A stretch of DNA of 64,000 nt from the NCBI RefSeq assembly GCF_055900595.2, contig NZ_CM148325.1; one strand, written 5' to 3'. Positions 34,733 through 46,374 of the stretch are shown piece after piece. The notes under the pieces are model-generated. The model ran no database searches, had not been told where the DNA came from, and saw only the letters and a list, made by a program, of their open reading frames with translations. How positions within the stretch are numbered: the first letter of the stretch is position 1; the number at the start of each line of letters is the position of its first letter. Both the position numbers and the translations under genes were made by a program.

Positions 34733-37409
34733 CGAACCCTTACGTCCCGACCCCGATCGTCTGCTGGAACAAACTGCCGCGCCGCATCGGGGGAAGCTGA
34801 AAGTTTTTTTCGGTGCCTGTGCAGGCGTCGGGAAGACCTGGGCGATGCTGGCAGAAGCCCAACGACTGCGGGCGCAAGGGCTGGATATTGTGGTTGGCGT
34901 GGTTGAAACTCACGGACGGAAAGATACCGCCGCAATGCTGGAAGGGCTGGCTGTTCTGCCGCTAAAACGCCAGGCGTACCGTGGGCGGCATATCAGCGAG
35001 TTTGATCTCGATGCCGCCCTCGCCCGCCGTCCGGCGCTGATCTTAATGGACGAACTGGCGCACAGTAATGCGCCAGGTTCTCGTCATCCTAAACGCTGGC
35101 AGGACATTGAAGAGCTGCTGGAAGCAGGCATTGATGTTTTCACTACCGTCAACGTTCAGCATCTGGAAAGTCTGAATGATGTGGTCAGTGGCGTCACCGG
35201 AATTCAGGTGCGGGAAACCGTGCCCGATCCCTTTTTTGATGCTGCCGACGACGTAGTGCTGGTGGACTTGCCCCCGGACGATCTGCGTCAACGGCTGAAA
35301 GAAGGCAAAGTCTATATTGCCGGGCAGGCGGAGCGCGCCATTGAACATTTTTTCCGCAAAGGCAATCTGATCGCCCTGCGCGAACTGGCACTGCGCCGTA
35401 CTGCCGATCGCGTAGATGAGCAAATGCGCGCCTGGCGGGGGCATCCTGGCGAAGAGAAAGTCTGGCACACGCGCGACGCGATCCTTTTATGCATCGGGCA
35501 TAACATCGGTAGTGAGAAACTGGTCCGCGCGGCGGCGCGGCTGGCGTCACGGCTGGGTAGCGTCTGGCACGCGGTGTATGTTGAAACCCCTGCCCTGCAT
35601 CGCTTACCGGAGAAAAAACGTCGGGCAATTCTCAGCGCCTTACGTCTGGCGCAGGAGCTGGGCGCGGAGACAGCAACACTTTCTGATCCGGCGGAAGAAA
35701 AAGCCGTAGTGCGTTATGCCCGTGAACATAATCTCGGCAAGATTATTCTCGGTCGCCCGGCCTCACGCCGCTGGTGGCGTCGGGAAACTTTTGCTGACCG
35801 ACTGGCGCGCATCGCCCCCGATCTCGATCAGGTGCTGGTCGCGCTTGATGAACCACCCGCCCGCACGATTAACAACGCGCCGGATAGCCGCTCTTTTAAA
35901 GACAAGTGGCGGGTACAAATTCAGGGATGCGTGGTTGCCGCCGCGTTATGCGCCGTTATCACCTTAATTGCCATGCAATGGCTGATGGCGTTTGATGCCG
36001 CCAACCTGGTGATGCTGTATCTGCTTGGCGTGGTGGTAGTGGCACTGTTTTATGGACGCTGGCCTTCGGTGCTTGCTACCGTCATTAATGTGGTGAGTTT
36101 CGATCTCTTTTTTATCGCCCCACGCGGCACGCTCGCCGTCTCTGATGTGCAGTATCTGCTGACTTTCGCGGTGATGTTAACCGTCGGGCTGGTGATCGGG
36201 AATCTTACTGCTGGCGTACGTTATCAGGCGCGGGTAGCCCGTTACCGCGAGCAACGCACACGACACTTATATGAAATGTCGAAAGCTCTGGCTGTGGGCC
36301 GCAGTCCGCAGGACATCGCCGCCACCAGCGAACAATTTATTGCTTCTACATTTCATGCCCGCAGCCAGGTGTTGTTGCCCGATGACAAAGGTAAATTACA
36401 GCCGTTAACACATCCGCAAGGAATGACGCCGTGGGAAGATGCCATCGCGCAGTGGAGTTTTGATAAAGGCCTGCCTGCGGGCGCGGGCACCGACACGTTA
36501 CCCGGTGTGCCATACCAGATTTTGCCGTTAAAAAGCGGCGAGAAAACCTACGGACTGGTGGTGGTGGAACCGGGGAATCTGCGCCAGTTGATGATCCCGG
36601 AACAGCAACGCCTGCTGGAGACGTTTACGTTGTTAGTCGCCAATGCCCTGGAACGCCTGACGCTGACCGCCAGCGAAGAACAGGCGCGGATGGCAAGCGA
36701 ACGTGAACAGATCCGCAACGCCCTGCTGGCGGCGCTTTCGCACGATTTACGCACGCCGCTTACGGTGCTGTTCGGTCAGGCAGAAATCTTAACGCTCGAT
36801 CTGGCAAGCGAAGGATCGCCCCACGCCCACCAGGCCAGCGAGATTCGTCAGCATGTGCTGAACACGACCCGACTGGTGAATAATCTACTGGATATGGCGC
36901 GAATTCAGTCCGGCGGCTTTAATTTGAAGAAAGAGTGGTTAACGCTGGAAGAAGTGGTCGGCAGCGCGCTGCAAATGCTGGAACCGGGTTTATCGTCGCC
37001 CATCAATCTTTCTCTGCCAGAACCGCTGACCTTAATCCACGTTGACGGGCCACTCTTTGAACGGGTGCTGATTAATCTGCTGGAGAACGCGGTGAAATAC
37101 GCGGGTGCACAGGCCGAAATTGGTATCGATGCCCACGTTGAGGGCGAAAATCTACAACTGGATGTCTGGGATAACGGCCCCGGTCTTCCGCCAGGCCAGG
37201 AGCAGACGATATTCGATAAGTTTGCCCGCGGGAATAAAGAGTCGGCGGTGCCGGGCGTCGGGCTTGGGCTGGCAATTTGTCGGGCGATTGTGGATGTACA
37301 CGGCGGCACCATTACCGCGTTCAACCGACCGGAAGGTGGTGCCTGTTTTCGTGTTACACTTCCCCAGCAAACTGCCCCTGAACTTGAAGAATTTCATGAG
37401 GATATGTGA
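34725..37409 (+). CDS. kdpD: sensor histidine kinase KdpD
   Basis: 894 aa from [14 protein letters not shown]; KdpD N-terminal domain, four TM helices, HisKA (SHDLRTPL) and HATPase domains; overlaps kdpC by 8 nt. Confidence 0.96.
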
Positions 37410-38083
37410 CAAACGTTCTGATTGTTGAAGATGAACAGGCTATTCGTCGCTTTCTGCGCACGGCGCTGGAGGGTGACGGTATGCGCGTTTTTGAAGCCGA
37501 AACGCTGCAACGGGGGCTGCTGGAAGCGGCAACTCGTAAGCCAGATTTGATTATTCTCGATCTCGGCCTGCCAGACGGTGATGGGATTGAGTTTATCCGC
37601 GACCTGCGCCAGTGGAGCGCGGTGCCGGTGATTGTGCTTTCCGCACGTAGCGAAGAGAGCGACAAAATCGCCGCGCTGGATGCTGGAGCGGATGATTACC
37701 TGAGTAAGCCGTTTGGCATTGGTGAATTGCAGGCCCGTCTGCGCGTTGCTTTACGCCGCCACTCTGCTACCACCGCGCCCGATCCGCGGGTGAAATTTTC
37801 TGATGTTACCGTCGATTTAGCCGCCCGCGTGATTCACCGCAGTGAGGAAGAGGTGCATCTCACCCCGATTGAATTCCGCCTGCTGGCGGTGCTGCTCAAC
37901 AATGCCGGAAAAGTGCTCACCCAGCGCCAGTTACTCATTCAGGTGTGGGGACCAAACGCGGTCGAACACAGCCATTATTTGCGTATTTATATGGGGCATC
38001 TGCGACAAAAACTGGAGCAAGATCCCGCCCGCCCTCGCCATTTTATTACTGAAACCGGTATTGGGTATCGGTTTATGCCATGA
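37406..38083 (+). CDS. kdpE: response regulator KdpE (OmpR family)
   Basis: 225 aa, receiver domain with IILDLGLPDGDG and winged-helix C-terminus; GTG start overlaps the kdpD stop. Confidence 0.95.
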   Translation: MTNVLIVEDEQAIRRFLRTALEGDGMRVFEAETLQRGLLEAATRKPDLIILDLGLPDGDGIEFIRDLRQWSAVPVIVLSARSEESDKIAALDAGADDYLSKPFGIGELQARLRVALRRHSATTAPDPRVKFSDVTVDLAARVIHRSEEEVHLTPIEFRLLAVLLNNAGKVLTQRQLLIQVWGPNAVEHSHYLRIYMGHLRQKLEQDPARPRHFITETGIGYRFMP

Positions 38084-38357
38084 ATTATTATTCAATAAAT
38101 ACGCTTAACTAATTATTAATTTATTATTAAACCTGCCCCGAAAATTATTATTTGGCAGGTTTAATTTCTTAATGAAAATATAACCTACGAAATTGCAACA
38201 TTTAAACAACAAAACAGCATCTAATATGGCGCTATTCATAATTAACGATTTATTATTTGGGGTGTGATCGTTTTTTGTTGATCTTCTTCACAGTTTATAG
38301 CCTTTTCATGGATAGAATAACTCTACCTTCAACTGACACAGCAAAAGGTAAAGGTAA

Positions 38358-38462
38358 ATGGAAAATAATAACCGCTTAATGCCTCATATAAGGCGGACAA
38401 CCCATATCATGAAGTTTGCCCATCGTAATAGTTTTGACTTTCATTTCTTTAATGCCCGTTAG
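38358..38462 (+). CDS. speFL: speF leader arrest peptide (ornithine sensor)
   Basis: 34-codon ORF MENNNRLMPHIRRTTHIMKFAHRNSFDFHFFNAR about 310 bp upstream of speF, closely matching the known SpeFL peptide. Confidence 0.8.
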   Translation: MENNNRLMPHIRRTTHIMKFAHRNSFDFHFFNAR

Positions 38463-38772
38463 TCTTCTGACTAAAGGGCACCCCAGCGTACAGGTCTCCC
38501 TGACTTTAAGCATTACAGGTTAATACCTGTATCCCTCGGTGCTCATATACTGCTAACCCTTTTAAACTCTAAATAATTCAAGTCGCAGCACTAGCAACTT
38601 GAAGTATGACGAGTATAGCCAGTTACCGGGCTGGTCTGGGTTATTGCATCTGCAAAAAGCAAACTACTGATTTATTTATCAGCGGTGGAGTTTTGCTTTT
38701 TTTCCGGCGTGATCGATTTCTCCTCTGAGAAATTGAGGACCTGCTATTACCTGAAATAAAGAGATGAACAAA

Positions 38773-40971
38773 ATGTCAGAATTAAAAATTGCCGTTAGTC
38801 GTTCTTGCCCGGATTGTTTTTCCACTCATCGTGCATGCGTGAATATTGACGAAAGTAATTATATTGACGTTGCCGCCATTATTTTATCAGTCAATGATGT
38901 TGAACGTGGAAAACTCGATGAAATAGACGCTACTGGCTATGGCATTCCTGTTTTTATTGCAACGGAAAATGAAGAACGTGTACCAGCAGAATATCTGCCA
39001 CGTATTACTGGTGTCTTCGAGCATTGTGAATCACGGAAAGAATTTTACGGACGTCAGTTAGAAACCGCTGCCAGCCATTATGAAACGCAGTTGCGCCCGC
39101 CCTTCTTCCGCGCACTGGTCGATTATGTCAATCAGGGCAATAGCGCTTTTGACTGCCCGGGTCATCAGGGGGGTGAGTTTTTCCGTCGCCATCCGGCAGG
39201 CAATCAGTTCGTGGAATATTTTGGTGAAATGCTCTTCCGCTCCGACTTGTGTAATGCCGACGTAGCAATGGGCGATCTACTGATTCATGAAGGTGCGCCA
39301 TGCATTGCACAGCAACATGCGGCTAAAGTGTTTAATGCCGATAAAACGTACTTTGTTTTAAACGGCACCTCCTCTTCCAACAAAGTGGTTTTAAACGCCC
39401 TGCTAACACCGGGTGATCTGGTGCTGTTTGACCGCAATAACCATAAGTCTAACCACCACGGGGCCTTGCTACAGGCTGGTGCAACACCGGTTTATCTGGA
39501 AACAGCACGTAACCCGTATGGTTTTATCGGTGGTATTGATGCGCACTGCTTCGAAGAAAGTTATCTGCGTGAACTGATTAGAGAAGTTGCACCGCAACGG
39601 GCAAAAGAGGCGCGTCCGTTCCGCCTCGCTGTGATTCAGTTAGGCACCTACGACGGTACTATTTATAACGCCCGCCAGGTGGTGGATAAAATCGGTCATC
39701 TGTGTGACTACATCCTGTTTGACTCAGCATGGGTCGGCTATGAACAGTTTATTCCGATGATGGCGGACTGTTCGCCGCTGCTACTGGAGCTTAATGAGAA
39801 CGATCCGGGTATTCTGGTTACGCAATCTGTACATAAGCAGCAGGCTGGTTTTTCTCAGACTTCACAAATTCATAAAAAAGACAGCCATATCAAAGGGCAA
39901 CAGCGTTATGTCCCGCACAAACGCATGAACAACGCCTTTATGATGCACGCCTCCACCAGCCCGTTCTATCCGCTGTTTGCCGCACTGGATATTAACGCCA
40001 AAATGCATGAAGGTGTCAGCGGTCGTAATATGTGGATGGATTGTGTGGTTAACGGTATTAATGCCCGCAAATTGATCCTCGATAACTGTCAGCACATTCG
40101 TCCGTTCGTTCCTGAACTGGTGGATGGTAAACCCTGGCAATCGTATGAAACAGCGCAAATTGCGGTTGATCTGCGCTTCTTTAAATTTGTACCCGGTGAG
40201 CACTGGCATTCTTTTGAAGGTTACGCAGAGAACCAATACTTTGTCGATCCGTGCAAACTGTTGCTGACAACTCCTGGCATTGATGCACGTAACGGCGAAT
40301 ATGAAGCATTCGGTGTACCCGCGACGATTCTTGCTAACTTCCTGCGCGAAAATGGCGTAGTGCCGGAAAAATGCGATCTTAACTCCATCCTCTTCCTGCT
40401 GACTCCGGCAGAAGATATGGCCAAACTGCAGCAACTTGTTGCCCTGCTGGTACGCTTCGAAAAACTACTGGAAGCTGATGCGCCTCTGGCGGAAGTATTG
40501 CCTTCCATCTACAAACAGCATGAAGAGCGCTACGCCGGTTATACCCTGCGTCAGTTGTGCCAGGAAATGCATGATTTGTATGCCCGTCACAACGTGAAAC
40601 AACTGCAAAAAGAGATGTTCCGTAAGGAACACTTCCCACGCGTCAGCATGAATCCACAGGAAGCCAACTATGCCTACTTACGCGGTGAAGTGGAATTGGT
40701 TCGTCTGCCGGATGCAGAAGGCCGTATCGCAGCCGAAGGTGCGCTTCCTTATCCTCCGGGTGTGCTGTGTGTTGTTCCGGGTGAAATCTGGGGTGGTGCT
40801 GTTCTGCATTACTTCAGCGCTCTGGAAGAAGGGATCAACCTGCTGCCAGGTTTTGCACCGGAGCTGCAGGGTGTCTATATCGAAGAACATGATGGTCGTA
40901 AGCAAGTTTGGTGCTATGTCATCAAGCCTCGTGATGCGCAAAGCACCCTGTTGAAAGGGGAAAAATTATGA
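38773..40971 (+). CDS. speF: inducible ornithine decarboxylase
   Basis: 732 aa from MSELKIAVS; Orn/Lys/Arg decarboxylase major domain. Confidence 0.96.
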   Translation: MSELKIAVSRSCPDCFSTHRACVNIDESNYIDVAAIILSVNDVERGKLDEIDATGYGIPVFIATENEERVPAEYLPRITGVFEHCESRKEFYGRQLETAASHYETQLRPPFFRALVDYVNQGNSAFDCPGHQGGEFFRRHPAGNQFVEYFGEMLFRSDLCNADVAMGDLLIHEGAPCIAQQHAAKVFNADKTYFVLNGTSSSNKVVLNALLTPGDLVLFDRNNHKSNHHGALLQAGATPVYLETARNPYGFIGGIDAHCFEESYLRELIREVAPQRAKEARPFRLAVIQLGTYDGTIYNARQVVDKIGHLCDYILFDSAWVGYEQFIPMMADCSPLLLELNENDPGILVTQSVHKQQAGFSQTSQIHKKDSHIKGQQRYVPHKRMNNAFMMHASTSPFYPLFAALDINAKMHEGVSGRNMWMDCVVNGINARKLILDNCQHIRPFVPELVDGKPWQSYETAQIAVDLRFFKFVPGEHWHSFEGYAENQYFVDPCKLLLTTPGIDARNGEYEAFGVPATILANFLRENGVVPEKCDLNSILFLLTPAEDMAKLQQLVALLVRFEKLLEADAPLAEVLPSIYKQHEERYAGYTLRQLCQEMHDLYARHNVKQLQKEMFRKEHFPRVSMNPQEANYAYLRGEVELVRLPDAEGRIAAEGALPYPPGVLCVVPGEIWGGAVLHYFSALEEGINLLPGFAPELQGVYIEEHDGRKQVWCYVIKPRDAQSTLLKGEKL

Positions 40972-42287
40972 GTCAGGCTAAATCGAACAAAATGGGCGTC
41001 GTTCAGTTAACCATACTGACGATGGTCAACATGATGGGCTCCGGCATCATCATGCTGCCGACAAAGCTTGCCGAAGTTGGGACAATCTCAATAATCTCCT
41101 GGTTGGTGACAGCCGTAGGCTCAATGGCGCTGGCATGGGCATTCGCAAAATGCGGTATGTTCAGCCGTAAATCAGGCGGTATGGGCGGTTATGCCGAGTA
41201 TGCTTTCGGTAAATCCGGTAACTTTATGGCGAACTATACCTACGGCGTCTCGCTGCTGATTGCTAACGTGGCGATTGCTATTTCGGCAGTTGGTTACGGC
41301 ACCGAACTGCTCGGCGCGAGTTTGTCACCAGTGCAGATTGGTCTGGCAACCATCGGAGTGCTGTGGATTTGTACCGTGGCTAACTTTGGTGGTGCGCGCA
41401 TTACCGGGCAAATCAGTAGCATTACCGTGTGGGGGGTCATTATTCCGGTGGTAGGCCTGTGCGTTATCGGCTGGTTCTGGTTTAGCCCGACACTTTACGT
41501 TGATTCCTGGAATCCGCATCATGCACCGTTCTTCAGTGCGGTAGGTTCTTCCATCGCCATGACGCTGTGGGCTTTTCTTGGTCTGGAGTCTGCGTGTGCG
41601 AATACTGATGTAGTGGAAAACCCGGAACGTAATGTGCCAATCGCGGTACTCGGCGGTACGTTAGGTGCGGCGGTGATTTATATCGTCTCCACCAACGTGA
41701 TTGCCGGGATTGTGCCCAATATGGAGCTGGCAAATTCAACGGCACCATTTGGTCTGGCCTTCGCGCAAATGTTCACACCGGAAGTGGGTAAAGTCATTAT
41801 GGCGCTGATGGTGATGTCCTGCTGCGGTTCACTGCTTGGCTGGCAGTTCACCATTGCCCAGGTGTTTAAATCTTCATCTGATGAAGGCTACTTCCCTAAA
41901 ATTTTCTCCCGTGTAACCAAAGTGGATGCACCGGTTCAGGGGATGTTGACCATTGTGATTATTCAGAGTGGATTGGCACTGATGACCATTAGCCCGTCAC
42001 TGAACAGCCAGTTCAACGTGCTGGTTAACCTGGCCGTGGTGACCAATATCATCCCATATATTCTGTCGATGGCGGCATTAGTCATTATTCAGAAGGTCGC
42101 CAATGTGCCACCATCAAAAGCGAAAGTAGCAAACTTTGTTGCCTTTGTTGGTGCGATGTACAGTTTCTATGCGCTGTACTCATCCGGGGAAGAAGCCATG
42201 CTGTACGGTTCCATCGTGACTTTCCTTGGTTGGACACTGTATGGTCTGGTATCACCACGCTTTGAACTGAAAAACAAACACGGTTAA
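40968..42287 (+). CDS. potE: putrescine:ornithine antiporter (APC family)
   Basis: 439 aa, 12 TM; overlaps the speF stop. Confidence 0.96.
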   Translation: MSQAKSNKMGVVQLTILTMVNMMGSGIIMLPTKLAEVGTISIISWLVTAVGSMALAWAFAKCGMFSRKSGGMGGYAEYAFGKSGNFMANYTYGVSLLIANVAIAISAVGYGTELLGASLSPVQIGLATIGVLWICTVANFGGARITGQISSITVWGVIIPVVGLCVIGWFWFSPTLYVDSWNPHHAPFFSAVGSSIAMTLWAFLGLESACANTDVVENPERNVPIAVLGGTLGAAVIYIVSTNVIAGIVPNMELANSTAPFGLAFAQMFTPEVGKVIMALMVMSCCGSLLGWQFTIAQVFKSSSDEGYFPKIFSRVTKVDAPVQGMLTIVIIQSGLALMTISPSLNSQFNVLVNLAVVTNIIPYILSMAALVIIQKVANVPPSKAKVANFVAFVGAMYSFYALYSSGEEAMLYGSIVTFLGWTLYGLVSPRFELKNKHG

Positions 42288-42306
42288 AAAAAGCGAAATA
42301 AATATC

Positions 42307-42330
42307 CTCCGGCATAGCCGGAGGTTTTTC
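42307..42330 (+). terminator. potE intrinsic terminator
   Basis: Hairpin CCTCCGGC-ATA-GCCGGAGG followed by TTTTT. Confidence 0.85.
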
Positions 42331-42332
42331 AA

Positions 42333-43040
42333 ATGCGCCTGTAAGGCTCTGTTACCAGCCGCGCCCTAACAGGCGCATACGATCTGACATTTGCATTCAA
42401 CTTCGTTACTTACGGCCCGTAAACGGGCTGCCCGGATATGGAATCGATAACTGCTCCCCCATTTTATCCTCTTCAAGCTGGTGCTTTATGTAGTCCTGTA
42501 TCTTCGCCGTGTTCTTACCCACCGTATCGACATAGTACCCTCGGCACCAGAACTCCCTGTTTCTGTATTTGAATTTCAAATCCCCAAACTGCTCGTAAAG
42601 CATCAGACTGCTTTTCCCTTTCAGATATCCCATAAAGCCGGATACGCTCATTTTGGGTGGGATTTCCACAAGCATATGGATATGATCTGCGCAGCACTCT
42701 GCTTCCAGAATCCGTACGCTTTTCCACTCACACAGCTTTCTCAAAATACTGCCTATCGCCCTACGCTTCTCTCCGTAAAACGCCAGTCTTCGGTATTTCG
42801 GCGCAAAAACTATGTGATATTTACAGTTCCAGCGGGTGTGCGCTAAGCTCTTTTCGTCCCCCATTGGGACCCCCTTTTGATTTCTTGTTTGACACTTGCA
42901 GTTGCCAGACCGCAAGGTGTTTTAACAAATCAAAAGGGGTTTTAATAACTGGCTCAAAGCTGAAAGCTTTCCGGAACCCCCAGCCTAGCTGGGGGTTTTC
43001 TGTGCACAAAAAAAGGGCGATTGAATGATCGCCCTTTCTG
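42333..43040 (-). mobile_element. IS200-like insertion sequence (IS200/IS605 family); boundaries approximate
   Basis: Contains a 152-aa Y1 HUH transposase gene; structured ends without long terminal inverted repeats (GC hairpin AGGGCGAT...ATCGCCCT with a U-run near one end, perfect 10-bp inverted repeat ATGCGCCTGT/ACAGGCGCAT near the other); inferred length about 708 bp. Confidence 0.65.
42406..42864 (-). CDS. tnpA: IS200-type transposase TnpA (Y1 HUH)
   Basis: 152 aa from MGDEKSLAHTRWNCKYHIVFAPKYRR...ADHIHMLVEIPPKMSVS; HUH motif HIHMLV and a conserved Tyr region. Confidence 0.88.
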   Translation of the reverse strand: MGDEKSLAHTRWNCKYHIVFAPKYRRLAFYGEKRRAIGSILRKLCEWKSVRILEAECCADHIHMLVEIPPKMSVSGFMGYLKGKSSLMLYEQFGDLKFKYRNREFWCRGYYVDTVGKNTAKIQDYIKHQLEEDKMGEQLSIPYPGSPFTGRK

Positions 43041-43078
43041 TTTGTTGACAAAGAGTTCGTTATTTATGCCGCATCCGG

Positions 43079-43221
43079 CAGGTGTAGGATCCAAACGCGG
43101 TCGAACACAGCAACTATTTGCGTAATTATATGAGGCATTTGCGACAAAAACTGGAACAGGATCACGTCCGCCCCGCCATTTCATTACTGAAACCGGTATT
43201 GGGTATCGGTTTATGCTTTGA
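43079..43221 (+). pseudogene. degenerate duplicate of the kdpE 3' end
   Basis: About 140 bp at roughly 85-90% identity to kdpE 37950-38083, with several substitutions and a 1-nt indel that breaks the frame. Confidence 0.7.
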
Positions 43222-43344
43222 AAAAAGTGGCAATGTATGGATAAAGTCATTTTTTATTCAAATATAAGGAACTTAATATTTAAAAAATGTCCCATACAAT
43301 GCCTCATCATAAATGACACCGTAGCACACAAGGAGCAAGTAGCG

Positions 43345-43995
43345 ATGCGTGAAGTGAGTCAGTTAGTAAATACTGAAGATTCAGCCTGGACAATAATCCA
43401 GAATTGGTTAAAAGAAGCCACAAACCATGCCGAACTCTTACCGGTTAATAAAGATTTAGCCGAAACCGCACTTTATCAATTACAGGTTACAACAAAATCA
43501 CCGATGGGTGCGCTTGTCTATGGCTCCGGAGGTCTGCTGATTGATAACGGTTGGTTACGCATATCAGGCTCTGGTCACCCCCGGTTACCACGAGATCCAG
43601 CAAGTTGGACACAACGCCCTGAATTCGCAAGCGTGCGGGCTTTACCCATCGCCGATGATGTCGCAGGGGGAATTTTTGCTCTTAATGGTGGCGATCTTGG
43701 GGAAGATACTGGCTGCGTTTATTATTTTGCGCCAGATACGCTGAATTGGGAAAGTCTGGAGGTTGGATATTCTGAGTTTCTTCAGTGGGCATTATCCGGT
43801 GATTTAGATACCTTCTATGAAAATGTACGCTGGCCGCAATGGCAAGAAGACGTAATAAAATTATCGGCAACGGAAGCCTTCACTTTCTACCCTTTCTTAT
43901 GGGTACAAAGTGAAGAAGCAAGAACAAGAAAAGTTATTTCGCTTACTGAACTCTGGGAAATGCAGTATCAAATGAAAGAAACAATCACGCAATAA
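43345..43995 (+). CDS. conserved hypothetical protein (positionally the ybfG locus)
   Basis: 216 aa from MREVSQLVNTEDSAWTIIQNWLKEATNH, with a strong AAGGAG SD 9 nt upstream; the longer ORF from 43237 lacks an RBS; family not verified. Confidence 0.6.
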   Translation: MREVSQLVNTEDSAWTIIQNWLKEATNHAELLPVNKDLAETALYQLQVTTKSPMGALVYGSGGLLIDNGWLRISGSGHPRLPRDPASWTQRPEFASVRALPIADDVAGGIFALNGGDLGEDTGCVYYFAPDTLNWESLEVGYSEFLQWALSGDLDTFYENVRWPQWQEDVIKLSATEAFTFYPFLWVQSEEARTRKVISLTELWEMQYQMKETITQ

Positions 43996-44035: not shown

Positions 44036-44530
44036 TTAATGTGTGTTTATCGCTTTCAATTCTTGCTGGCAATTTTCTGACTGACAGCGTCGCAACTCAA
44101 TAATCCCGACATGCATCATCGAGCCAAAAAATCCGCTTTCGCTGACATAATCCTCATTAACTATCGGTCGAGTGCCGGGCTTACCCTGGCAAATCCCCAT
44201 AAAAAATGAGGTGTAGCATTGCCATTCAGGATTTAAACCGGTCTTTTCTTGTGCTGACATATCATGAAGATAAGTAAGTTCTTTTTCGTTCCCGCCTGAC
44301 AACTGCCAGCGGCGGGTATTATCAGGTAAGTTATCGCCACGGCAATTTGTCTTACACCGGGAAGGCGCAATATTTACCGCAATGCTACCCGTTAATCCTC
44401 TGGTTTTATCTTTAGGGGTCAGTAACCAGTCACCAGCTAATGATGATTGTTCAGGTTGGGCGCATGCTGTCAGCAGTAGTGTGGCGGTAATTAATGCCAC
44501 TCTGACGACCAGACTCCTTTTGGTCTTCAT
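44036..44530 (-). CDS. ybfP: lipoprotein YbfP
   Basis: 164 aa from MKTKRSLVVRVALITATLLLTAC, with lipobox LLTAC. Confidence 0.8.
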   Translation of the reverse strand: MKTKRSLVVRVALITATLLLTACAQPEQSSLAGDWLLTPKDKTRGLTGSIAVNIAPSRCKTNCRGDNLPDNTRRWQLSGGNEKELTYLHDMSAQEKTGLNPEWQCYTSFFMGICQGKPGTRPIVNEDYVSESGFFGSMMHVGIIELRRCQSENCQQELKAINTH

Positions 44531-44581
44531 TTTGAATTCCCTTGAGCTATTCAGTTTGTTGGCAAAGTACTCGTTGTTCAT

Positions 44582-44679
44582 GCCGGATGCGGCGTGAACG
44601 CCTTATCCGTCCTACAAAATAGTGCAAATTCAATATATTGCACCATCCTCGTAGGCCTGATGAACGTAGCGTATCAGGC
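44582..44679. repeat. REP/BIME pair
   Basis: GCCGGATGCGGCGTGAACGCCTTATCCGTCCTAC and GTAGGCCTGATGAACGTAGCGTATCAGGC. Confidence 0.75.
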
Positions 44680-44689
44680 TATCATAAGT

Positions 44690-44719
44690 AAAAAGGGCGA
44701 TCTTCCGACCGCCCTTTTT
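44690..44719. terminator. bidirectional intrinsic terminator downstream of pgm
   Basis: Hairpin GGGCG-ATCTTCCGAC-CGCCC flanked by an A-run and a T-run. Confidence 0.7.
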
Positions 44720-44733
44720 CTTATTTAATGTGT

Positions 44734-46374
44734 TTACGCGTTTTTCAGAACTTCGCTAACAATCTCAACCGCTTCTTTCTCGATCTGCTTGCGATGTTCT
44801 TCACCGAGGAAGCTTTCGCAGTAGATTTTGTATGCGTCTTCCGTGCCTGACGGACGCGCGGCGAACCAGCCGTTGTCAGTCATCACTTTCAGACCGCCAA
44901 TAGAAGCACCGTTGCCCGGTGCCGCCGTCAGGCGCGCGGTGATCGGGTCACCTGCCAGGGTGCTGGCGCTCACCATTTCCGGAGACAGCTTAGACAGCGC
45001 CGCTTTTTGTGCGGAAGTCGCAGCTGCCTGCAAACGGTTGTAGCTCGGCGCACCAAAGCGTTTTGCCAGTTCGTTGTAGTGTTCCTGCGGGTTCTTACCG
45101 GTAACAGCAGTGATTTCCGCCGCCAGCAGACACATAATGATACCGTCTTTATCGGTGGACCACGGCGTGCCGTCGAAACGCAGAAAGGAAGCCCCTGCGC
45201 TCTCTTCGCCGCCAAAGCCGAAGCTGCCGTCGAACAGACCATCCACAAACCATTTGAAACCTACCGGTACTTCTACCAGCTTACGGCCCAAATCGTTGAC
45301 CACGCGGTCGATCATCGCAGAAGAAACCAGCGTTTTACCGACAGCAACATCTTTGCCCCACTGCGGACGATGCTGGAACAGGTAGTTGATCGCCACTGCC
45401 AGGTAATGGTTAGGATTCATCAAACCTGCCGGAGTGACGATACCGTGACGGTCATAATCCGGGTCGTTAGCAAATGCCAGATCGAACTTATCACGCAGTG
45501 CCAGCAGGCCCGCCATTGCACACTCGGAGGAACAGTCCATACGGATCGCGCCGTCTTTATCGAGGTGCATAAAGCGGAAGGTTTGATCGACCTGATCGTT
45601 AACGATGGTCAGGTTAAGGTTGTAATACTCGCCAATACGCTTCCAGTATTCGATACCGGAACCGCCCAGCGGATCAACGCCCAGCGTCAGGCCCGCTTTC
45701 TGAATCGCCGCCATATCAACGATATCGGCCAGACCTTCCACAAACGGCTGCACCAGATCCTGCTCTTTCACATGACCGGATGCCATCGCTTCGTCGAGGG
45801 AGATACGCTTCACACCTTTCAGGCCATCGGCCATCAGTGCGTTGGCCCTGTCTTCCACCACTTTGGTGACGTTGGTATCAGCCGGGCCACCATTTGGCGG
45901 ATTGTACTTGATACCACCATCTTCTGGCGGGTTATGGGACGGTGTAATCACGATACCGTCTGCCAGCGGGCCACCTTTTTTATTGTGAACCAGGATGGCA
46001 TTGGAAACGGCAGGCGTCGGAGTGAAGCCATTGTTTTCCTGCACAATAACATCTACGCCGTTCGCTGCCAGCACTTCCAGTACGGAAATGAACGCAGGCT
46101 CGGACAGGGCGTGAGTATCTTTACCCACATAGCAAGGGCCAGTGATGCCGTTTTTCGCACGTTCTTCAGCAATTGCCTGAGCGATCGCCAGAATATGCGG
46201 CTCGTTAAAGCTATGGCGCGCTGCACTGCCACGGTGACCGGAAGTACCGAATTTCACCGCGTGCTCCGCATTCCCTGCTTCTGGTTTCAGTACATAGTAT
46301 TGCGCCGTCAGTTGGGCGACGTTAATCAAATCACTCTGTTGTGCAGGTTGGCCTGCACGATTGTGGATTGCCAT
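44734..46374 (-). CDS. pgm: phosphoglucomutase
   Basis: 546 aa from [22 protein letters not shown]; active-site TPSHNP. Confidence 0.96.

Follow-up and report, generated by a model that had tools for sequence, protein, structure and literature searches.

The kdpE 3′-end fragment ybfI of Escherichia coli as a probable junction fossil in the kdpE-pgm interval

Within the stretch of DNA analysed here (the window; 64,000 nt of E. coli sequence, 99.9% identical to NZ_CP098223), the final 144 nt of kdpE (37940-38084) occur a second time, as a direct repeat, at 43079-43222. The second copy is the E. coli pseudogene ybfI (b4636 in K-12), which has already been catalogued, and it is a component of a polymorphic ybfI-ybfG-ybfP block, not of the speF-potE module. 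We consider it probable that ybfI is the decaying end of a kdpE gene that once stood immediately upstream of ybfG, that is, a junction fossil from one illegitimate join between haplotypes.

A second copy of the kdpE 3′ end

The repeat pair consists of the following features:

37406..38083, plus strand: kdpE, intact response-regulator gene, 225 aa (open reading frame list; PGAP annotation in the 99.9%-identical genome, L001, 1707-2384)
37940..38084, plus strand: repeat copy 1, the last 144 nt of kdpE, codons 179-225 and stop (repeat families D1/D2; translation)
43079..43222, plus strand: repeat copy 2, pseudogene ybfI, the kdpE 3′ remnant (alignment, blastn, translation and repeat search; K-12 and PGAP annotation)

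The repeat search in the 64-kb window returned the similarity as two families, 37940-38034 versus 43079-43173 (95 nt, 87%) and 38033-38084 versus 43171-43222 (52 nt, 92%). From one start to the other, the distance is 5139 in the former and 5138 in the latter, indicating one 1-bp deletion in the downstream copy. A blastn comparison of the two copies gave 88.97% identity over 145 nt (E=1.45e-48), and their alignment by MAFFT was concordant with both searches. This similarity is far beyond chance. The copies are collinear from CAGGTG (37940 and 43079) through TGAA (38084 and 43222). The first-pass annotation had described about 140 bp at 43079-43221 that resemble the kdpE 3′ end, stop region included, and that carry substitutions and a frameshifting indel; the two repeat families, the shift in spacing and the pairwise alignment, which confirmed the similarity to kdpE coding sequence, bear this out. 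The upstream copy translates as QVWGPNAVEH...GYRFMP and a stop. The downstream copy translates as QV, a stop and DPNAVEHSNYLRNYMRHLRQKLEQDHVRP, after which the frame changes to PRHFITETGIGYRFML and a stop; it has an in-frame TAG at the third codon besides the 1-bp deletion, no start codon, and none of the 178 N-terminal codons.

The REP core GCCGGATGCGGCG matches 43067-43079 on the minus strand with 1 mismatch, in the 13 nt immediately before the copy, and the REP-like motif reported there earlier is thus real. A REP head directly 5′ of the copy is also what speaks for a generic REP/BIME or chance match as the source of the repeat, a reading to which we give practically no weight: the 144 aligned nucleotides are kdpE codons 179-225 (E=1e-48), and the REP similarity is confined to just those 13 nt outside the repeat.

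PGAP annotates the segment in NZ_CP098223 and in IAI39 as a wHTH pseudogene, "frameshifted; incomplete; missing N-terminus". In K-12 MG1655, the annotated pseudogene ybfI lies at the same position, between potE and ybfG on the potE strand, so that locus, position, orientation relative to both neighbours and homologous sequence all agree with the window copy. By blastn, the window copy is 93.4% identical to the K-12 ybfI region (180 nt) and 98.9% identical to that of IAI39. Among ybfI alleles, that of the window groups with the IAI39-like class; it differs from K-12 ybfI at ∼7% of positions and by the 1-bp frameshift deletion, which K-12 lacks, and, unlike in K-12, an IS200 lies just upstream. 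EcoGene and EcoCyc reportedly describe ybfI as a fragment homologous to KdpE. Our literature search on ybfI, ybfG, ybfP and b4636 returned no paper on the E. coli fragment; the matches were Bacillus genes of the same name or unrelated.

The two classes of ybfI alleles are ∼7.6% apart, and each class is similar in its 3′ part to a different kdpE allele, a sign that gene conversion may have acted on ybfI later and blurred its history. Four to five substitutions, the TAG included, are common to all three ybfI alleles examined. These shared substitutions, together with the ∼7.6% divergence between classes, indicate that the joining event is old relative to present E. coli diversity at an unusually polymorphic locus.

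The fragment is probably without function, which we infer from the stop, the frameshift, the missing start codon, its polymorphic presence and the lack of an Rfam match. A functional response regulator of the OmpR/KdpE family requires a receiver and a complete winged helix, whereas ybfI holds only residues 179-225, broken by a stop and a frameshift. It could instead have been kept because it contributes to the promoter or 5′ region of ybfG, acts as a small RNA or encodes a peptide derived from KdpE, and its location 122 nt upstream of ybfG, the weak promoter-like matches starting at 43218 and 43273 and the good conservation of its last 52 nt between alleles would fit such a role. We regard this as very improbable, because there is an in-frame stop at codon 3, the window allele is frameshifted and no start codon is present, because the alleles diverge by ∼7.6% and about two-thirds of E. 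coli genomes lack the fragment, and because the promoter-like matches lie at or beyond the fragment end and are no commoner than in shuffled sequence (6 versus 4.0 ± 2.4). Rfam gave no match inside the fragment; the nearby matches are STnc490 (IS200) and the REP-derived ES036 and naRNA4. The sole terminator-like match in a scan of the fragment is weak and on the minus strand.

The kdpE-pgm interval in other species and within E. coli

To the right of kdpE, the interval contains, besides ybfI itself:

38358..38462, plus strand: speFL leader peptide gene, 34 aa, allele with N5 and L7 (open reading frame list; PGAP; mapping)
38773..40971, plus strand: speF, inducible ornithine decarboxylase (PGAP in L001, 3074-5272, offset 35699; tblastn)
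40968..42287, plus strand: potE, putrescine-ornithine antiporter (open reading frame list; PGAP)
42304..43008, minus strand: IS200 copy with tnpA at 42406-42864, between the potE stop and the terminator (PGAP; Rfam STnc490, 146 bits, 42874-42997)
43010..43042, plus strand: terminator T1 after potE, 76% similar to T2 (terminator scan, 43012-43037; repeat D5)
43036..43079, plus strand: DR_L, ending in a REP head (GCCGCATCCGGCA) and abutting ybfI (repeat D3, 80%; pattern count; REP match)
43223..43344, plus strand: ybfI-ybfG spacer, probably a former kdpE-ybfG intergenic region (alignment; the same spacer follows intact kdpE in GF4-3 and CUWW10)
43345..43995, plus strand: ybfG, intact gene for a DUF2625 protein, 216 aa (PGAP; PF10946 homologues)
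44036..44530, minus strand: ybfP, small lipoprotein gene (PGAP; K-12 annotation)
44550..44593, plus strand: DR_R, running into a full REP/BIME (repeat search; pattern count)
44582..44689, strand not assigned: REP/BIME element (REP core match at 44582; Rfam ES036 and naRNA4 at 44576-44658)
44690..44722, plus strand: terminator T2, shared with pgm (repeat D5; sequence reading)
44734..46374, minus strand: pgm, conserved right anchor of the variable interval (PGAP; mapping)

As first described, the two kdpE 3′ copies bracket speFL-speF-potE and an IS200-like element, the tnpA gene of which is annotated in the 99.9%-identical genome. The IS200 copy, inserted at GAAATAAA^AAAGGGCG between the potE stop and T1, is present at this site in 9 of the 5426 complete E. 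coli genomes; it is a late, strain-level insertion and not part of the scar. It may uncouple potE from T1.

Two deeply divergent alleles segregate in E. coli across 37900-39300, which spans the kdpE 3′ end, the kdpE-speFL intergenic region, speFL and the 5′ third of speF. The allele in our DNA is 49-86% identical, per 200-nt window, to that of K-12, IAI39 and SCU-172 and is nearer to those of E69 and E. albertii. The idea that this strain had imported a rare kdpE-3′/speFL/speF-5′ segment proved partly wrong: the allele is divergent from that of K-12 but is the majority one (3317 genomes, O157:H7 included). Residues 5 and 7 of SpeFL, in the N-terminal part of this ornithine-sensing leader, are N and L here and S and T in K-12. 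Genomes with the window allele also carry a 132-nt open reading frame (38248-38379) that overlaps the speFL start and is called a 'TonB-dependent receptor' by PGAP (WP_103253904.1); this call is almost certainly spurious.

We mapped KdpE, SpeFL, SpeF, PotE, YbfG, YbfP and Pgm by tblastn onto 80 kdpE loci from other species, taken with 10-kb flanks. kdpE lies next to pgm, in convergent orientation, in Serratia, Pantoea, Erwinia, Dickeya, Yersinia and Buttiauxella. speFL-speF-potE lies between them in Salmonella arizonae, Citrobacter sedlakii, several Enterobacter, Kluyvera, Cedecea, Yokenella and Trabulsiella, and also in E. albertii and the divergent Escherichia representative E69. A second kdpE 3′ copy was found within 10 kb at none of the 80 loci (word-7 blastn), among them about 30 that have speFL-speF-potE between kdpE and pgm, and neither ybfG nor ybfP was present at the 80 loci. 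In these searches, the second copy occurred only in E. coli proper. Its identity to kdpE is 91-92% for the K-12/IAI39 allele, ∼89% for the gene of its own strain, 87-88% for E. albertii and the divergent Escherichia E69 and SCPM-O-B-8794, and at most 81% for Citrobacter and Salmonella.

Other cargo occupies the same interval elsewhere (L030, L038, L044, L062, L028, L020 and L045). It amounts to ∼9.8 kb in Klebsiella oxytoca and K. spallanzanii and to ∼7.5 kb in Entomohabitans and Klebsiella sp. BIGb0407; Phytobacter massiliensis has an extra 2 kb before speFL, and Pseudocitrobacter faecalis and UBA7338 have a speF-like gene without speFL or potE. Across genera, the kdpE-pgm interval looks like a general integration hotspot.

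Within E. coli, the haplotypes were counted over the 5426 complete genomes, and each of them was observed directly:

potE directly beside pgm, no fragment: 3167 of 5426 genomes
complete ybfI-ybfG-ybfP block: 1847 of 5426 genomes
kdpE-BIME-ybfP-...-pgm, without speF-potE: 254 of 5426 genomes
kdpE-BIME-T2-pgm: ∼54 of 5426 genomes (estimate)
intact kdpE followed directly by ybfG-ybfP: 2 of 5426 genomes (GF4-3 and CUWW10)
IS1-mediated deletion of speF-potE-ybfI: 1 of 5426 genomes (KL53)

The estimate of ∼54 derives from a kdpE-BIME-T2-pgm probe that reached at least 80% coverage in 308 genomes, which are assumed to include the 254 with kdpE-BIME-ybfP. In the 1847 genomes the fragment occurs as one block with ybfG and ybfP, and speF-potE has occupied the kdpE-pgm site for far longer than the fragment, as a rule without a scar. 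The proposal that speF-potE had been inserted at the kdpE boundary, with the repeat as its scar, therefore survives only in part: kdpE-speF-potE-pgm without a second kdpE copy is widespread and the fragment goes with ybfG-ybfP, so these comparative data contradict its use as a marker of a speF-potE insertion. What stands is the recombination scar itself, a non-functional kdpE remnant with an illegitimate left junction at a REP.

In GF4-3 and CUWW10, an intact kdpE is followed by the same spacer as lies downstream of ybfI and then by ybfG-ybfP-DR-BIME-T2-pgm. From their sequence, these two genomes may be either relics of a parental kdpE-ybfG arrangement or products of deletion between the repeats. 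Their kdpE 3′ ends are without ybfI-specific variants and their flanks are of the K-12 class, which is compatible with both; a deletion could have crossed over within the last 19-40 identical nucleotides of the repeats.

Roughly 6% of complete E. coli genomes are without speFL-speF-potE altogether. In such genomes (T-HYM1, L093; E. coli 042, H96; H108-H115), kdpE ends in TAG and runs straight into the BIME, which is followed by ybfP (254 genomes) or directly by T2-pgm (∼54); the divergent Escherichia SCPM-O-B-8794 (L005) has the kdpE-BIME-T2-pgm form. In E. coli KL53 (L092, 4444-5271), an IS1 lies ∼80 nt after the kdpE stop and abuts a 5′-truncated ybfG. This is an IS1-mediated removal of speFL-speF-potE-ybfI and thus an independent route to loss of the module.

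ybfG is intact in the window and a pseudogene in K-12. A search for a donor through YbfG homologues found, as the closest DUF2625 proteins from outside E. coli, sequences at most 57% identical and in unrelated contexts (Kosakonia, Citrobacter), and identified no donor lineage. In one Citrobacter genome (L085), the homologue has small DUF genes (DUF596, DUF6016, DUF7661) around it, which recalls clusters of orphan immunity genes. Two apparently intermediate homologues, P0005 (86%) and P0008 (74%), were rejected as artefact-like: each is a Logan contig of ∼1 kb from the E. coli locus, riddled with stops and with changes of the C-to-T type. Three such ∼1-kb contigs (L087, L088 and L089) are densely strewn with C-to-T and G-to-A type changes, contain many stops and pose as YbfG 'homologues' of 74-86%; the changes look like bisulfite conversion or DNA damage and not like a sister lineage.

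Junction anatomy and the origin of the fragment

The order of elements is best read in IAI39, which has no IS200: the potE stop, T1, DR_L (CTGTTTGTTGACAAAGAGTTCGTTATTTATGCCGCATCCGGCAG), directly joined to GTGTAGGGTCC... (ybfI), the 122-nt spacer, ybfG, ybfP, DR_R (CAGTTTGTTGGCAAAGCGCTCGTTGTTCATGCCGGATGCGGCG...), the BIME, T2 and pgm. DR_L and DR_R form a 44-nt direct repeat (80%; 43036-43079 and 44550-44593) that flanks the ybfI-ybfG-ybfP block, and the DR pattern has just these two occurrences in 64 kb, versus 0 expected by chance. Only one DR is present in E69 and E. coli R32_14_1F, where it lies between T1 and the BIME. Compared over the 5′ part (GTTTGTTGRCAAAG), DR_L and DR_R are more alike than either is to the single-copy DR of E69 and R32 (GATTATTAACAAAG). 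The terminators T1 and T2 are likewise a direct repeat (33 nt, 76%). The commonest potE-pgm junction of E. coli (SCU-172; L094, 6800-6860) is a hybrid of the sequence upstream of T1 and the stem of T2, which suggests that the short potE-pgm arrangement arose by deletion between T1 and T2 rather than being primitive.

At the left junction, ...GCCGCATCCGGCAG is followed by GTGTAG, versus ...CAGGTGTGG in kdpE. The REP head ...CCGGCAG is joined to kdpE ...CAGGTG with an overlap of CAG (microhomology), and the junction REP head is inverted relative to DR_R, which makes the exact breakpoint ambiguous. On the right, alignment with 70 nt of downstream sequence showed that homology to every kdpE allele ends at TGA+1; the sequence past ybfI is the ybfG upstream spacer, which is unrelated to any kdpE-speFL intergenic region. 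That the kdpE homology stops at the stop codon and is followed by the ybfG spacer indicates that a kdpE once lay directly upstream of ybfG.

On the reading that we consider probable, two alternative cargo haplotypes, kdpE-speFL-speF-potE-T1-DR-REP...pgm and kdpE-ybfG-ybfP-DR-REP-T2-pgm, would have been the parents. The REP after the DR of the former would have been joined illegitimately, through the CAG microhomology, to position -144 of kdpE in the latter, and the other side of the exchange would have been ordinary homologous recombination in kdpE or pgm. The product would be kdpE-speFL-speF-potE-T1-DR_L joined to kdpE′(ybfI)-ybfG-ybfP-DR_R-BIME-T2-pgm. A single event, as we infer it, would thus account for the duplicated kdpE 3′ end, for the second 44-nt repeat and for the end of kdpE homology at the stop codon; the identical product would also result if a circle closed at REP/kdpE(-144) integrated at the DR in Campbell fashion. 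The displaced fragment, having lost selection after the join, would then have gained the TAG and, in this allele, the frameshift. Which parent was the recipient would not be readable from the product: speF-potE may have come to a ybfG chromosome, or ybfI-ybfG-ybfP to a speF-potE chromosome. As a side effect, the two 144-nt repeats could recombine and delete speF-potE. Since the kdpE alleles of E. coli are those most similar to the remnant, both parents would have been E. coli or very close relatives; our searches identified no donor or parental genome directly. In favour of a fusion we count the parental-type arrangement kdpE-ybfG, extant in GF4-3 and CUWW10 (possibly by secondary deletion), and the extant haplotypes without speF-potE, kdpE-BIME-ybfP-...-pgm and kdpE-BIME-T2-pgm.

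Other histories can be set against this one. The repeat could be the scar of the original insertion of speFL-speF-potE into the kdpE 3′ boundary, the downstream copy being the displaced native end of kdpE; the copies do bracket exactly the segment from the kdpE 3′ end to potE, and speF-potE is patchy among genera and strains (∼6% of E. coli are without it), so that gain and loss occur. We judge this unlikely. speF-potE without a remnant is found in Salmonella, Citrobacter, Enterobacter, Kluyvera, Cedecea, E. albertii and 3167 E. coli, the remnant is, at ∼91% identity to E. coli kdpE, far too similar for an acquisition that predates the genera, and it is found together with ybfG-ybfP and the repeat that flanks them. 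The original-acquisition version is largely refuted by these observations. A lineage-restricted version, in which a kdpE-ybfG-ybfP chromosome regained speF-potE by a crossover in kdpE and an illegitimate join, yields the same product as the fusion and survives; the two are equivalent accounts of one recombinant. Alternatively, the duplication could be intrachromosomal: REPs are known join-points of tandem duplications, and a REP-joined duplication from kdpE(-144) to the REP in a speF-potE chromosome, in which ybfG-ybfP later replaced the second speF-potE, would agree with the 5′ variants that DR_L and DR_R share and that the single-copy DRs of E69 and R32 lack, and with T1 and T2 being a repeat pair as well. 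However, this history is improbable, as at least two further precise events would be needed to replace the stretch from the kdpE stop to the DR with ybfG-ybfP, searches of E. coli genomes found no two-copy speF-potE intermediate, and kdpE directly upstream of ybfG or ybfP exists independently.

To return to the fusion of haplotypes, REPs were, reportedly by Shyamala, Schneider and Ames in 1990, described as join-points of illegitimate rearrangements. We tentatively suggest, at somewhat less than even confidence, that the kdpE/ybfI repeat is a fossil, formed in nature, of an illegitimate fusion that a REP mediated between two cargo haplotypes segregating at kdpE-pgm, with all presumed intermediates still segregating. 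These would presumably be kdpE-BIME-pgm, kdpE-BIME-ybfP-pgm, kdpE-ybfG-ybfP-pgm, the fused speF-potE form and the terminator-to-terminator deletion derivatives. Given the 5′ variants shared by DR_L and DR_R, a duplication within one lineage fits at least as well as a fusion of diverged haplotypes.

Comparison with known systems and meaning for the locus

Islands flanked by attL and attR in gene 3′ ends likewise show a partial 3′-end direct repeat around a multi-gene block, with the upstream gene intact and the displaced end decaying. Unlike in such islands, the bracketed block (speFL, speF, potE) has no integrase, excisionase or mobility gene, the kdpE/ybfI repeat is 144 nt long and ∼90% identical instead of a short exact att core, and the speF-potE block is ancient at the same site in other genera, where there is no repeat. 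A search of the block for a tyrosine or serine recombinase found none, its genes being only speFL, speF, potE and the late IS200 tnpA. Empty kdpE-pgm sites exist, and sites filled with speF-potE but without the repeat are widespread, which is not island behaviour. A target-site duplication by a transposon or IS was also rejected: the repeats are 144 nt and 44 nt long and degenerate, and IS200 lies inside, without having them at its borders, and most of the repeat-bearing genomes lack it.

Homology-facilitated illegitimate recombination has been described in Acinetobacter and Streptococcus pneumoniae. The mechanism proposed here would be the same, with a conserved anchor (kdpE or pgm), a join at 3-4 nt of microhomology (here CAG) and a partial gene duplication left behind. 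What the anatomy shows of it is the CAG junction at the REP, together with kdpE and pgm as conserved anchors. As with the REP/BIME join-points of Shyamala et al. (1990), a REP head stands where the remnant is joined on its left. Unlike laboratory duplications between REPs, one join partner here is coding sequence. The cases in that work were reportedly laboratory tandem duplications between two REPs.

ybfI is an annotated piece of a dead gene and has little functional import, and ybfI itself was already known; our analysis adds the series of haplotypes and the way in which repeats are nested in the kdpE-pgm interval. These correct the tempting inference of a recent speF-potE insertion at the kdpE boundary. 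The fragment probably records the fusion of two kdpE-pgm arrangements and as such is of modest value for the study of genome evolution. In E. coli, the kdpE-pgm interval is a small hypervariable hotspot in which no fewer than six arrangements segregate between three nested direct-repeat pairs (kdpE-3′/ybfI, DR_L/DR_R and T1/T2). If the repeat is indeed the product of a REP-mediated fusion, its two 144-nt copies would still be a substrate for recombination, and the speF-potE acid/polyamine module would be a deletable cassette.
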